NCBI GenBank assembly: GCA_023382335.1
Contig: JAMCPM010000006.1
Location: 70,372 to 134,371 of the forward strand
Source of the DNA: Actinomycetota bacterium
Lineage (GTDB): Bacteria > Actinomycetota > Thermoleophilia > BMS3ABIN01
Direction of reading: 5' to 3'
Length of the DNA: 64,000 nt
Under the pieces are notes generated by a model. It searched no databases. It was given only the letters and a program-made list of their open reading frames with translations, and had not been told where the DNA came from. The translations under genes and the position numbers were made by a program. Shown here one piece after another: positions 7,496-10,605 of the stretch; position 1 is the stretch's first letter; each line of letters begins with the position of its first letter.

Positions 7496-7571
7496 TGCGC
7501 CCGTAGCTCAATTGGCAGAGCAGGGGACTCTTAATCCCAAGGTTATAGGTTCGATTCCTATCGGGCGTACC
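7496..7571 (+). tRNA. tRNA-Lys (anticodon CTT)
   Basis: Hand-folded cloverleaf. Acceptor stem gcgcccg/cgggcgt, D-stem gctc/gagc, anticodon stem-loop gggga-CTCTTAA-tccca (U33, anticodon CTT, A37), T-arm atagg-ttcgatt-cctat. Discriminator A and an encoded CCA. Confidence 0.9.
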
Positions 7572-7606
7572 AGATTTACTTCCTGCTATAACAGGATTCC
7601 ATCAAA

Positions 7607-7641
7607 AAAGGCCACCTTTTGAAGCGGCCTTTTTTCATTTT
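7607..7641 (+). terminator. putative intrinsic terminator after tRNA-Lys
   Basis: aaaaaaGGCCaccttttgaagcGGCCtttttt: a GC stem flanked by an A-run and a T-run, just 3' of the tRNA. Confidence 0.4.
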
Positions 7642-7918
7642 TACACACACCTTTACACCCACCGGGAAACAAAATCCCCTCATTTCAGCTAAAAAGAATC
7701 CCTTCATATAATCCCTTTTACAGTGTTTGATTCTTTCCTGCGCTGATTGTAGCGGCATCGATATAGTCTGGAGCCCTTCGCCGAGCGCGGGATGGGCTTC
7801 CAGGAATTTGCGGAGTCCCTCCTGATCTAACGCCCTTAGCTACGTCAGAGTTTGGCGGAGCTCATCTGCCTTCTTCAACAGAACCTTGATAGGCGCTGTC
7901 ACTCTTCGATCAAGAATC

Positions 7919-9574
7919 TTAGTTAGAGTTTGTTGTGTCAGTACTTGCCAGGTGCTCGTCGCAATAACTATCATAATGTGAAAGATCGTAAACCTTTTTG
8001 TCTGAATCATAGTATCTAAGCTCGGCATTGTTAATCTTGCCGTTTCCCGCAATGACTACATATCGGAACCCATAGCTACAAAGTGCATCATAATTGCCTG
8101 CCTGAAAAGCTTTTTCGATCCCTTCATCTTGCCAAGCGACGCTGCCTGGTCTGCGTGAAATATAGCCGCCGAATATGGGATGGCCATGAATTAGTTGATA
8201 GTTCAACAGCTTATCGGTGGTATCATCAAAAACCGCGCCAGGAGGCATATTCTTTATCGCGTATGCATATGCTGGCTGCTCGGGAATGATCGGCCGCAAT
8301 GGCTGGGCCGGCATGTATTCGAAGACAACCAGCAATATGGTTGCACCAACAACCAGCCGTTTCTTTTTTATTTGGGAGTCCCATATACGCGCCAGCGACA
8401 TGGCGCTGATCATCGACGCGGCCAGGATGACCACGGCCATCATCCGGTTGGGCATGCCGCCAATATTGGCAATCGGCAGAACCGATTGTAGAAGCGAATA
8501 AGGTAAGGGGAGACTTATCTCATAATTCACGATATGTAAAATCGGCCCCAGGCTTAGCAAAAGAAAGAAGAAAAGGATAAAAAGCCACGCCGTGAAGAAA
8601 TCCTTGGCTGGCAACTTCTTGCGATTGATAATTGCAAAGATTATGAGACCCCAGACGCTGATCCCTATGAAACTTTGACCAAGGCCTTCCCCGAAGTGCA
8701 ACTGCTGGCTAAACCAGTCGTTCAGCGGGCCAGGAATTATAAAGCTTATCAGTTCGGTAGAAAAGACTTCCGGTATGTGTAAGTCGACGAAACCGCCTGC
8801 CTTAAAAGCACGCGACAATGCCAATAGAAAAGGGGAGATTGCGGCAACCGAAATTGTTAAGAAAATTCCGAACGAAACCAGATGTCTGATTGTAGCGAAG
8901 TACTCCGGCTTTTTCTTGATCATTACAGCAATCAGGAAAATGAATGCCAGCAGAGCGGCATAGAAAGCATAATATAGTTCTGAATAAAAAGTGAGGATGA
9001 GAAAGAGCGCAGCAATTGATGCAGTTGTGATACGTGGTCGTATTAGCATTTTGTGCCAGAAAAGCAAAAACAACGGTAGCCATTCGAGAGAAGTCAAGTT
9101 GATATGGCTGCCAAGGTGCAGAACCGAATATCCGGAAAAGGCATAGATAAAACCGGCCAGAATGCTCGGCCAGTAGTTCTCGCAAAAATAATAAGCAAGC
9201 AAAAAAGCGCTTAAGCCACTGGCGACTACTGATATAACCACAAGAATATTGTATGAAGTGAAGGGAGAGAAGAATGACTCTAAAAAAACCCCGGGAATTG
9301 AATTCACAAGACTTAAAGTATGCGCCAGCAACGAAGTCCCTTCCGGGAAATGAATCATTGAAGAAAAATACGGATTTTGCAGATTTACAATCGATTGGCG
9401 CACATGCCATATATTCCAGACGTTTTGCATGCCATCCACTTCGTCGCCGAAGAAGCGTGATGGAAGTTCCAGGATTGCAGGAAAAGAAAGAATACAAAAA
9501 CATGCGAAGTATACAAATGCGGGGAAAACGCCAAACTTAATAAAACGTGCCTTAGACAGCTTCGCTAGATTCAT
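7919..9574 (-). CDS. large polytopic membrane protein, GT-C-fold/YfhO-like (putative membrane glycosyltransferase), in AT-rich islet
   Basis: 551 aa with more than 10 predicted TM helices, an FGDEVDG acidic motif in the first extracytoplasmic loop, and a C-terminal soluble domain. Codon usage is strongly AT-biased, unlike the flanking genes. Confidence 0.6.
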   Translation of the reverse strand: MNLAKLSKARFIKFGVFPAFVYFACFCILSFPAILELPSRFFGDEVDGMQNVWNIWHVRQSIVNLQNPYFSSMIHFPEGTSLLAHTLSLVNSIPGVFLESFFSPFTSYNILVVISVVASGLSAFLLAYYFCENYWPSILAGFIYAFSGYSVLHLGSHINLTSLEWLPLFLLFWHKMLIRPRITTASIAALFLILTFYSELYYAFYAALLAFIFLIAVMIKKKPEYFATIRHLVSFGIFLTISVAAISPFLLALSRAFKAGGFVDLHIPEVFSTELISFIIPGPLNDWFSQQLHFGEGLGQSFIGISVWGLIIFAIINRKKLPAKDFFTAWLFILFFFLLLSLGPILHIVNYEISLPLPYSLLQSVLPIANIGGMPNRMMAVVILAASMISAMSLARIWDSQIKKKRLVVGATILLVVFEYMPAQPLRPIIPEQPAYAYAIKNMPPGAVFDDTTDKLLNYQLIHGHPIFGGYISRRPGSVAWQDEGIEKAFQAGNYDALCSYGFRYVVIAGNGKINNAELRYYDSDKKVYDLSHYDSYCDEHLASTDTTNSN

Positions 9575-9606
9575 CTTATCATTCCGCGGTTACAAGCAAT
9601 TCAGGA

Positions 9607-9831
9607 TTATACTGCCCGGAGAAAGCAAAAATCCAAGCAGCAATACTTTTTAATTAAGAAAACAAAAAAAGATTCGTGGCGGGAATAAATGGTCTCATCG
9701 GTTTCCAGAATCACTGAAAGTACGCTCAATAAAATGAGAGTAACGATAGAGACATTGAAAATTTTTCCAGGCAGGTCCTCAGATTTAAAATCTAAGATCT
9801 CGAATACGATGCTATGCACTTTTTTTCGCAT
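9607..9831 (-). CDS. hypothetical small protein (AT-rich islet)
   Basis: 74-aa ORF with a hydrophobic stretch, in the AT-rich segment between the lipoprotein gene and the membrane protein gene. Supported by the ORF call only. Confidence 0.25.
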   Translation of the reverse strand: MRKKVHSIVFEILDFKSEDLPGKIFNVSIVTLILLSVLSVILETDETIYSRHESFFVFLIKKYCCLDFCFLRAV

Positions 9832-9837
9832 CAGGAT

Positions 9838-10422
9838 CTATTCTCGTTCGATCGAATAGATTGGATGTAATTCATTCCAGCCATGCTCCGCATCCAAAAC
9901 ATAGTCGCCTAACACTTTGACACGATCTCCTGCTTTTGGTGTAAGAATTGGATAGGTAAAGCCCCTACACGCATCTTTTGCGTCCTCTTGCGTAATATTG
10001 TTCTGGCAAACCGGCTCGAGCACCAAATCGCCATGCTGACCGTCAACGTTCTTTTGGTTCAACATGCCTGAATACTGTGAGTCTAAAGTTAGACGGATGT
10101 GATAATCACCATCCGCTTCCTTCTTTACTGCTGCGACTGTCCCGGTGACCGTTTTGCAATTCTCAATCCTGTGAAGGCGTTGAGGGTTGTACACATGGTT
10201 CCAAAGACTTTCGTCGCACTCACTGGAACTGGGAGATGTTGCAGTGACTGACAATGGTGGTGTGATTGCGCCGGTCGTGGAAGCAAGTGGCGCCATACCC
10301 TGATCAGATTTAAGTGTCGAGGAGCCTGATTCAGCGCAGCCTATGATTAGAACAACAGCAAAAGGCAGAATTAGAAAGATTCTCCGGAAAGAAAGTAGGA
10401 ACACAATTCCGATCCTGGCCAA
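9838..10422 (-). CDS. hypothetical secreted lipoprotein (Cys-rich, unknown function), AT-rich islet
   Basis: N-terminal signal peptide with a lipobox (LIIGC), Ser/Thr-rich linker and several conserved Cys. No recognisable domain. Confidence 0.55.
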   Translation of the reverse strand: MARIGIVFLLSFRRIFLILPFAVVLIIGCAESGSSTLKSDQGMAPLASTTGAITPPLSVTATSPSSSECDESLWNHVYNPQRLHRIENCKTVTGTVAAVKKEADGDYHIRLTLDSQYSGMLNQKNVDGQHGDLVLEPVCQNNITQEDAKDACRGFTYPILTPKAGDRVKVLGDYVLDAEHGWNELHPIYSIERE

Positions 10423-10605
10423 TTTTGATAGGAAGATTATTTTAACGCCTGATCGCAGTCATGTATATAGATAGACCCAGACGGAAAAGGCCGCCTGGAG
10501 GGCGGCCCAATAGTTGCAATCAACTTCACATCAAGTCAGGCAGGGGCCAAAGACTCACGAAAGCGATCAGAGTCCACACAGTTCGTCAGGCGTACCAGCT
10601 CCCTC

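Follow-up and report, generated by a model that had tools for sequence, protein, structure and literature searches.

An AT-rich islet beside tRNA-Lys(CUU) in an uncultured actinobacterium as a probable remnant of integrase-driven mobile DNA

Composition and genes of the AT-rich islet

A 64-kb stretch of DNA from an uncultured actinobacterium (the window) carries, immediately 3' of a tRNA-Lys(CUU) gene, an AT-rich segment of about 3 kb (the islet), which is probably an immobilised leftover of integrase-driven mobile DNA in an integration hotspot at that tRNA. The tRNA gene (7497-7572, plus strand) is intact and is the single tRNA reported by ARAGORN in the window, as tRNA-Lys(ctt); it scores 69 bits in an Rfam tRNA search. 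It lies at the left edge of the segment, where the preliminary description of this DNA had placed it, and constitutes the integration target (attB side, att denoting an attachment site).

The islet (7574-10588) has a GC content of 0.451, with local 300-nt windows ranging from 0.38 to 0.48, compared with 0.613 to its left, 0.588 across 10599-19229 and 0.595 for the whole window minus the islet. The preliminary description gave a fall from about 62% to about 40% GC; the fall itself is confirmed, and the lower figure is true locally but slightly low as a mean. Three open reading frames (ORFs), all on the minus strand, lie where they had been described (7919-9574, 9607-9831 and 9838-10422) and encode 551, 74 and 194 amino acids, respectively. 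Their GC content at third codon positions (GC3) is 0.496, 0.427 and 0.462, whereas the 41 other ORFs of the window have a GC3 of 0.737±0.065 with a minimum of 0.585. By composition, all three islet ORFs are foreign. Overall GC content and codon-position composition had been suggested earlier as a check on the islet, and both (0.451 versus 0.595; 0.43-0.50 versus 0.737±0.065) set it apart from its surroundings.

The 551-residue product of the first ORF (7919-9574) is a polytopic membrane protein with a GT-C fold (YfhO/STT3/ArnT-like), made up of an N-terminal membrane module of several helices and an extracytoplasmic C-terminal domain, as judged by its AlphaFold2 (AF2) model, Foldseek searches and homologues. 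The model has a pLDDT of 83.8 and a pTM of 0.87, and the top 20 Foldseek matches in the PDB were all GT-C proteins (STT3/OST, PglB, AglB, ArnT, AftA and DPY19), with a probability of 1.0 and TM scores of 0.45-0.54. At the level of sequence families, the protein had no Pfam or NCBIfam match at E<=0.1, including YfhO (PF09586), and none of the three islet proteins significantly matched Pfam, NCBIfam, PHROGs or PADLOC entries; sequence-profile searches of the PDB with the GT-C and lipoprotein families yielded nothing meaningful. The earlier label of a GT-C/YfhO-like protein therefore holds for the fold, but not for the Pfam family. Seven homologues were found at ~50% identity, more distant ones match YfhO, DUF6044 or STT3, and 3 of 15 homologues match Pfam YfhO (best 3.8e-5); one source labels the protein 'YfhO family'. 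Near its start lies an acidic motif, D44-E45-V-D47 (D44-E45-x-D47), in which D47 is >=90% conserved among 15 homologues, and which, going by the secondary structure of the model, may fall within the first extracytoplasmic loop. The gene has a GC content of 0.449 and is full length relative to its homologues. From the model and these comparisons we conclude that the protein is a predicted intact glycosyltransferase of GT-C fold.

The GT-C homologues occupy unrelated loci: beside prfA/prmC, beside secA/prfB and, in one case, amid transposase fragments as a low-GC copy. At one locus (1615-3405 in contig L063, 793-2583 in L064) a 51% identical homologue has a GC content of 0.45 between flanks of 0.55-0.56, accompanied by transposase fragments, a HigB/HTH toxin-antitoxin pair and a tRNA-Leu(CAA) ~4 kb away, and this locus looks like another tRNA-linked islet carrying the GT-C gene family.

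The 74-residue ORF (9607-9831, GC 0.36) is probably a 5' stub, covering the S1-S2 helices, of an Ion_trans-type channel gene. Its relatives are only short proteins that match its first ~59 residues; these in turn match positions 2-51 of 241 in PF00520 (E 9e-4 to 5e-2) and weakly match NaChBac-type channels. The assignment is transitive and of moderate confidence, and it would make this ORF a sign of gene decay. Thus, the tiny ORF reported earlier is present, but it is probably a truncated remnant of an ion-channel gene, not a gene in its own right.

The 194-residue ORF (9838-10422) encodes a predicted lipoprotein with a lipobox and a Cys/His-rich OB-fold domain, in keeping with the Cys-rich lipoprotein described earlier. 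A signal peptide with the lipobox I-I-G-C (RRIFLILPFAVVLIIGC, read from the translation) is followed by a low-complexity, low-confidence linker and then by a domain at residues ~68-194, which AF2 models with a pLDDT >95 and which has OB-fold matches. Invariant Cys, His, Asp and Glu columns run through its more than 190 homologues, which include proteins of Nitrososphaeria and fusions with DUF3761 or cupredoxin domains. The closest homologues (67% and 59% identity) reside on contigs of 42-45% GC and have a gene GC3 of 0.46, as in the islet. One of them, from the same sample, adjoins a helicase-nuclease and an HNH gene, and the other lies between an AbiE system and TraG/type IV secretion system (T4SS), RadC and DUF6908 genes, a context resembling an integrative and conjugative element or a defence locus. 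The family is also present on at least 16 IMG/VR viral contigs, on one of which an endolysin and a DarB-like gene lie ~1.6 kb from the family member. These contexts, together with the GC content of the homologues, indicate that the lipoprotein gene is typical mobile-element or phage cargo from donors of ~45% GC. Three of the five single-nucleotide polymorphisms (SNPs) that distinguish the window from a second assembly (GCA_023489075.1) fall at 10394, 10397 and 10400, spaced three bases apart within the part of this ORF that encodes the signal peptide; they are at second codon positions and therefore non-synonymous, and they could be either population variation or an assembly quirk.

The gaps between lipoprotein gene, channel stub and GT-C gene are 6 and 32 nt, and a sigma-70-like promoter match (10439-10467, minus strand; 9/12 in a consensus scan, a pattern match only) lies upstream of the string. 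Judging from these gaps and the promoter-like site, the three may be transcribed as one unit. The three genes were not found together elsewhere.

Intact, empty and decayed states of the tRNA-Lys site

Relatives of the locus were found by a metagenome scan with the Na/Ca-exchanger (NaCaEx) protein encoded to the left of the tRNA. Six contigs share the gene order of the window: Fer4, TP-methylase, methyltransferase, radical-SAM, DUF1015, NaCaEx and tRNA-Lys(CUU). Their amino acid identity to the window in NaCaEx is 85% (L066), 81% (L067) and ~74% (L070-L073). None of the six carries the islet genes, SQR or ArsR at the tRNA-Lys site, the closest being the relative of 85% identity. A comparison with relatives had been proposed in the preliminary description, and its outcome supports the claim that the segment is foreign at this tRNA.

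What these relatives carry at the site reveals how it has been used. In L066, a contig of Thermoleophilia type, the tRNA (11059-11134) is directly followed by an integrative element of 7.4 kb (11135-18494). A tyrosine integrase is encoded on the opposite strand at 11243-12370 (PF00589, 4.5e-28, and PF14659), and the other genes encode a 411-residue product without assigned function, a 696-residue Toprim primase-like protein, a Terminase_4 small subunit and a HIRAN protein. In its gene content the element matches a phage satellite. Its far end (18448-18494) is a perfect direct repeat of 47 nt that runs from the tRNA anticodon loop through CCA plus one G, and the stop codon of a GGDEF/HD-GYP gene follows 6 nt past this attR. 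In tRNA-linked islands as defined by Islander, a regenerated tRNA and a displaced tRNA fragment bracket the island (PMC4383910). L066, with its regenerated tRNA and 47-nt copy, bears this textbook signature and exemplifies a genuine att duplication at the site. A sibling integrase is found directly after the tRNA in L072, and L067 represents the empty site, where the tRNA is followed by ~10 nt, the GGDEF/HD-GYP stop codon and then GH26. The locus is a hotspot at which tyrosine-integrase elements integrate. In viral contigs, no relative of the L066 integrase exceeds 35% identity, which is uninformative.

The left edge of the islet retains part of such an element. Window positions 7581-7695 (plus strand) align to L066 11143-11259 with a Smith-Waterman score of 68, whereas shuffled sequences score 20.7±2.4 with a maximum of 35. 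The aligned L066 sequence is the integrase-proximal (attL) arm. In the window this arm remnant contains a small hairpin at 7582-7595, a hairpin with an A-tract and a T-tract that resembles a terminator (7604-7635), a tandem repeat TTTACACACACC/TTTACACCCACC (7640-7663) and GGGAAACAAAATCCCC (7664-7679), and it ends in a degenerate version of the last ~6 integrase codons on the minus strand (7679-7696). The two hairpins, the tandem repeat, a CGGRAAnCAAAA block and these codons are shared with L066 in the same order. Over these last six codons 13 of 18 nt are identical, with L066 reading I-L-S-G-N-stop and the window L-F-S-stop-N-E. The tandem unit of ~12 nt appears as TTGACAGCAAC twice in L066 and as TTGACACCTACC/TTGACGCCTACC in L072. 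When a composite regular expression for the tandem repeat was run over 2.1 Mb of fetched DNA, it matched only the window (with its copies L001, L002 and L055) and L066, there beside the integrase; the L072 variant, also beside an integrase, was missed by the expression but seen in alignments. Neither the empty site of L067 nor the attR side of L066 has the arm, which therefore derives from the element and is not a native tRNA trailer. The window accordingly holds a truncated remnant of an L066-type element, which is direct evidence of past integrase-mediated integration and goes beyond what the preliminary description could draw on. Shorter pieces of the arm are kept in L071 and, to a lesser extent, in L070 and L073, and elements have evidently come and gone repeatedly at the tRNA-Lys site.

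Beyond the arm the trail ends. A tblastn search with the L066 integrase gave no similarity past 7696, tblastn and Pfam searches detected no intact integrase in 7400-10700, and homologues of the L066 integrase, primase and small-terminase genes were not found in the window segment. The statement that no integrase remains is hence correct for an intact gene, with the stub of ~6 codons at 7679-7696 as the only trace. The spacer that follows (7697-7918, no strand assigned, no homology found) includes a GC-richer part at 7740-7900 (GC 0.565), which had previously been read as gene or integrase remnants. This reading is not sustained: the best tblastn match with the L066 integrase had an E-value of 0.57, blastn and tblastx detected no similarity to any locus or to the rest of the window, stop-to-stop pieces searched against Pfam at E<=10 gave only sub-threshold MHB and OHCU_decarbox matches of ~17 bits, and searches of 5.8 billion proteins and of PDB sequences returned no candidate and noise only, respectively. 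The MHB and OHCU_decarbox matches (E about 0.008) were rejected as noise.

The extent of lineage-specific DNA was determined from downstream synteny by tblastx. Similarity to L073 resumes at window position ~19227, at the 3' end of a GH26/Big_7 gene (stop at 19230) and ~100 nt past the L073 tRNA, and similarity to L067 and L070 resumes at the same place, ~2 kb past their own tRNAs (range of resumption ~19227-19243). For L071 it resumes at 21662, 36 nt past the L071 tRNA. The lineage-specific DNA is thus the 11.6 kb from 7574 to ~19229, with the islet inside it. The earlier extent of ~3 kb holds for the AT-rich part, but the lineage-specific region is larger, with synteny regained at ~19230.

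The short direct repeat and alternative readings

At its right edge the islet carries a possible counterpart of the tRNA end. The 10-mer GGCGTACCAG occurs exactly twice in the window, at 7564-7573 and 10589-10598, both on the plus strand, compared with 0.08 matches expected from shuffled sequence. The preliminary description had reported the repeat at both ends, correctly, but set the first copy one base too far left (7563-7572). The similarity extends to 12 of 13 positions over TCrGGCGTACCAG. The first copy, TCGGGCGTACCAG (7561-7573, plus strand), is made up of the 3' strand of the acceptor stem, the discriminator base, CCA and one further G, and the second, TCAGGCGTACCAG (10586-10598, plus strand), is a candidate attR stub of the displaced tRNA 3' end. 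The second copy has the same orientation and the same end register (...GTACCAG) as the att identity of L066. It ends 7 nt short of the stop codon (10606-10608) of the flanking high-GC, SQR-like gene and lies within about 100 nt of the composition switch, a placement that had been noted earlier and is confirmed. This geometry resembles that of the L066 attR, where the stop codon of the flanking gene is 6 nt away, and of the L067 empty site. The composition-based chance of finding GGCGTACCAG on one strand within a 300-nt boundary zone is about 5e-4. Islander recognises sites at the junction of T-stem and acceptor stem alongside anticodon-loop sites (PMC4383910), and a fragment of 10-13 nt, consisting of the acceptor-stem 3' strand and CCA, would suit a crossover at that junction. 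We infer that the short repeat is attR, and the evidence leans modestly towards 10586-10598 being a real stub of a displaced tRNA end.

Taken alone, however, the short repeat is not compelling as att evidence, and a series of observations weighs against the reading of the islet as a decayed tRNA-linked insertion. At 10-13 nt the repeat is far shorter than the 47 nt made by the sibling element to which the arm belongs; nothing recognisable of the other 34 nt is present at the second copy, and there is no 47-nt repeat in the window. In a Smith-Waterman scan with the 46-nt att segment derived from the tRNA (7528-7573), two other places in the window score equally well or better. The right end of the islet (10423-10585) has no similarity to the right arm of L066 or to any other locus, and GC content begins to recover at ~10450-10500, before the second copy is reached. 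A GC-rich hairpin, GGCCGCC-N5-GGCGGCC followed by TTTT, was read from the sequence at 10485-10507 on the minus strand, where a consensus scanner gave no call. It could be the transcript terminator of the SQR gene, in which case native DNA might extend to ~10480 and the 10-mer could belong to the SQR 3' untranslated region. Because this hairpin falls inside the repeat-bounded segment, the exact right boundary could fall anywhere from 10480 to 10598. The relatives also lack, at this site, another 8.6 kb of DNA with host-like composition (10606-19229), so that a single 3-kb insertion is too simple a history. Moreover, an empty site in a near-identical strain was not found, the intact integrase that is a key Islander criterion is missing from 7400-10700, and cargo function is deduced from fold and context only, with no GtrA/GtrB-type partner genes in the islet. 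The claimed att duplication is accordingly plausible, being exact, direct and in the right register, but unproven, given its 10-13 nt as against 47 nt and the equally good chance matches elsewhere.

The length of the sibling repeat, the competing matches in the window, the terminator-like hairpin left of the 10-mer, the early recovery of GC content and the absence of the whole 7574-19229 region from the site in relatives all speak for the alternative in which the AT-rich DNA did come in at the tRNA-Lys hotspot, the 10-bp repeat arose by coincidence, the distal att proper was lost or lies elsewhere, and 7.6-19.2 kb is a composite of several events (integration, deletion and rearrangement) that has lost the marks of its boundaries. 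This explanation has to accept as accidental an exact, direct 10-mer in the end register of the L066 att, which lies no more than ~100 nt from the change in composition, has the SQR stop codon 7 nt away and mirrors both the L066 attR and L067, at an a priori chance of about 5e-4. Nor was a second att fragment, as a tandem array would predict, found near 19.1-19.2 kb, and no better att-like match is present there. We consider this alternative as a whole unlikely, though a serious contender.

Polytopic glycan-processing genes are often AT-rich, and some GT-C homologues lie amid housekeeping genes (prfA, prfB and secA) at near-host GC, so the islet could also be viewed as a native, intrinsically low-GC cell-envelope cluster, as O-antigen/wzy-type genes often are, that sits beside the tRNA by chance. 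This is very improbable in view of its absence from all six syntenic relatives, the integrase-arm remnant at its left edge, a GC3 deficit that extends to the soluble lipoprotein and the channel stub, the lipoprotein homologues on viral contigs and in mobile-element-like contexts, and the lack of any other locus that unites the three genes.

An assembly or binning artefact, in which a low-GC contig was joined into a high-GC metagenome-assembled genome (MAG) at a repeated tRNA sequence, might be suspected from the MAG origin of the window and from the break of Logan contig L002 inside the tRNA at 7516, but it can be dismissed for practical purposes since both junctions recur in independent assemblies: L002 is identical (100%) to window 7516-11721 and spans the two, the contig of NCBI MAG GCA_023489075.1 has the same structure with 5 SNPs in 17 kb, and arm remnant and islet are contiguous in all assemblies.

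The host-like DNA to the right of the islet contains the SQR-like gene (10606-12042, minus strand), an ArsR gene (12292-12648, minus strand), genes for Tkt, Tal, a 6PGD-like protein and G6PD (13169-18633, plus strand) and RpiB (18625-19080, minus strand), all of host-like composition, with GC3 values of 0.69-0.76. A genome scan with the SQR-like protein yielded 52 loci (best amino acid identity 86%), all from Actinomycetota/Thermoleophilia/Gaiellales-type MAGs or more distant ones. At none of the 52 were NaCaEx, a cation-diffusion-facilitator (CDF) gene or tRNA-Lys(CUU) found beside SQR, which makes them uninformative on the empty site. Pentose-phosphate genes (Tkt, Tal; the oxidative pentose-phosphate operon) were likewise not found beside SQR in these relatives, and the block from 10.6 to 19.2 kb is therefore itself composite. 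The SQR 3' flanks of 14 relatives are unrelated to that of the window, lack the GGCGTACCAG motif and are too divergent to weigh a native origin of the 10-mer. No record turned up for the 492-residue SQR product in an exact look-up.

Several observations concern tRNAs and signalling genes around these blocks. In relatives, the ArsR-SQR pair lies near a tRNA-Gly(CCC) ~230 nt downstream of SQR (11667-11742 in L034, 5579-5654 in L003) or a tRNA-Val(CAC) 1.7-2.7 kb downstream (14158-14234 in L035, 5064-5140 in L004), which may point to a tendency of the SQR module itself to flank tRNA-linked variable regions. To the left of the tRNA, a CDF gene (5378-6289, minus strand) stands between DUF1015 and NaCaEx only in the window lineage, whereas in L066, L067 and L070-L074 DUF1015 is directly followed by NaCaEx; the CDF gene is a separate lineage-specific insertion of ~1 kb with a host-like GC3 of 0.82. 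To the right, a c-di-GMP-I riboswitch (21678-21762, minus strand, 72.5 bits) precedes the GH26/Big_7 gene (19230-21662, minus strand). A GGDEF and HD-GYP gene adjoins the GH26/Big_7 gene in L066 and L067, and in L071 the riboswitch directly abuts the tRNA flank, the GH26 gene being missing.

History of the islet and comparison with known systems

The reading we favour is that one or more tyrosine-integrase elements integrated 3' of tRNA-Lys(CUU) and subsequently decayed. What remains would be, from left to right, the arm with the last integrase codons (7581-7696), the spacer, the AT-rich cargo and a probable tRNA stub of 10-13 nt abutting SQR. Because it has no integrase, the segment is no longer able to excise and is a fixed islet. 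Both the arm and the short repeat would follow from one coherent, though speculative, sequence of events. The tRNA would at first have been occupied by an older AT-rich element whose att was short, a newer L066-type element would then have joined at the regenerated tRNA to form a tandem array, and a single deletion would finally have eliminated the newer element for the most part, including its 47-nt fragment, as well as the integrase end of the older one.

The preliminary description regarded the islet as decayed and as carrying cell-envelope functions. Its foreign nature, its link to the tRNA and the loss of the integrase are upheld, and the envelope function is suggested by fold and context. 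The GT-C enzyme would move a sugar from a host-made polyprenyl-phosphate donor onto an envelope glycan or protein, and the secreted OB-fold lipoprotein would act at the cell surface. By analogy with the places where these families occur, a 'moron' role in lysogenic conversion or superinfection exclusion seems most likely. A bolder and less probable proposal is that lipoprotein and GT-C enzyme form a domesticated conversion or exclusion module left by a phage or satellite, in a hotspot used by a previously undescribed family of small, satellite-like actinobacterial elements with an integrase, a Toprim primase, a small terminase, a HIRAN protein and a 47-nt att, the arm of one of which would be kept in the window.

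The islet is an ordinary kind of genome scar, comparable to a decayed genomic island at a tRNA or to what is left of a cryptic prophage, and involves no new mechanism. It documents, in a poorly known lineage of uncultured actinobacteria (Thermoleophilia/Gaiellales-like), a tRNA-linked integration hotspot at which one locus is seen in three states: intact (L066 and L072), empty (L067) and decayed (the window and L071). It is also a case of cargo genes that outlive their vehicle, in that a GT-C glycosyltransferase and a phage-type OB-fold lipoprotein survive. For the annotation of MAGs, the islet genes should not be counted among the core envelope genes of the lineage, and the locus offers an entry point into a widespread, uncharacterised lipoprotein family. 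The satellite-like element of 7.4 kb in L066 and the phage-borne family of OB-fold lipoproteins are more interesting leads than the islet itself.

The obvious systems for comparison are the tRNA islands of Islander (PMC4383910, with the sublocation classes of Williams 2002 as cited there). The islet resembles them in having an intact tRNA at one end and, at the opposite end, a candidate for the directly repeated tRNA 3' terminus, in its foreign composition, in its absence from relatives and in the integrase-proximal arm beside the tRNA; its length of 3.0 kb between the repeats lies within the 2-200 kb accepted there. It differs in that the integrase is gone except for ~6 codons, that the displaced fragment comprises 10-13 nt and that 3 kb is near the lower size limit. 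By strict Islander criteria, with the integrase missing and the fragment marginal, the islet is not a member. The L066 sibling, in contrast, has the classical identity block from anticodon loop to 3' end, of 47 nt.

In Shigella flexneri, cryptic serotype-converting prophage remnants carry gtr loci beside the tRNA-Thr gene thrW, with the GtrA flippase and the GtrB polyprenyl-phosphate glycosyltransferase. Like these, the islet is a low-GC remnant beside a tRNA that has kept a polytopic membrane glycosyltransferase after the loss of phage genes. Unlike them, it contains neither GtrA nor GtrB but a YfhO/STT3-like GT-C protein whose ~50% identical homologues are uncharacterised, no phage structural remnants were recognised in it, and its host is an uncultured actinobacterium. 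With respect to the YfhO/GT-C family (PF09586; STT3, PglB, ArnT and AftA structures), the 551-residue protein itself stands apart at the level of Pfam and NCBIfam matches (E<=0.1), while its predicted fold, the early acidic motif and the YfhO matches of 3 of its 15 homologues connect it to the family. Finally, although the window is without the genes of an L066-type element and its cargo is unrelated, the two share the same tRNA target and ~115 nt of arm homology, which takes in the tandem repeats as well as the last integrase codons.

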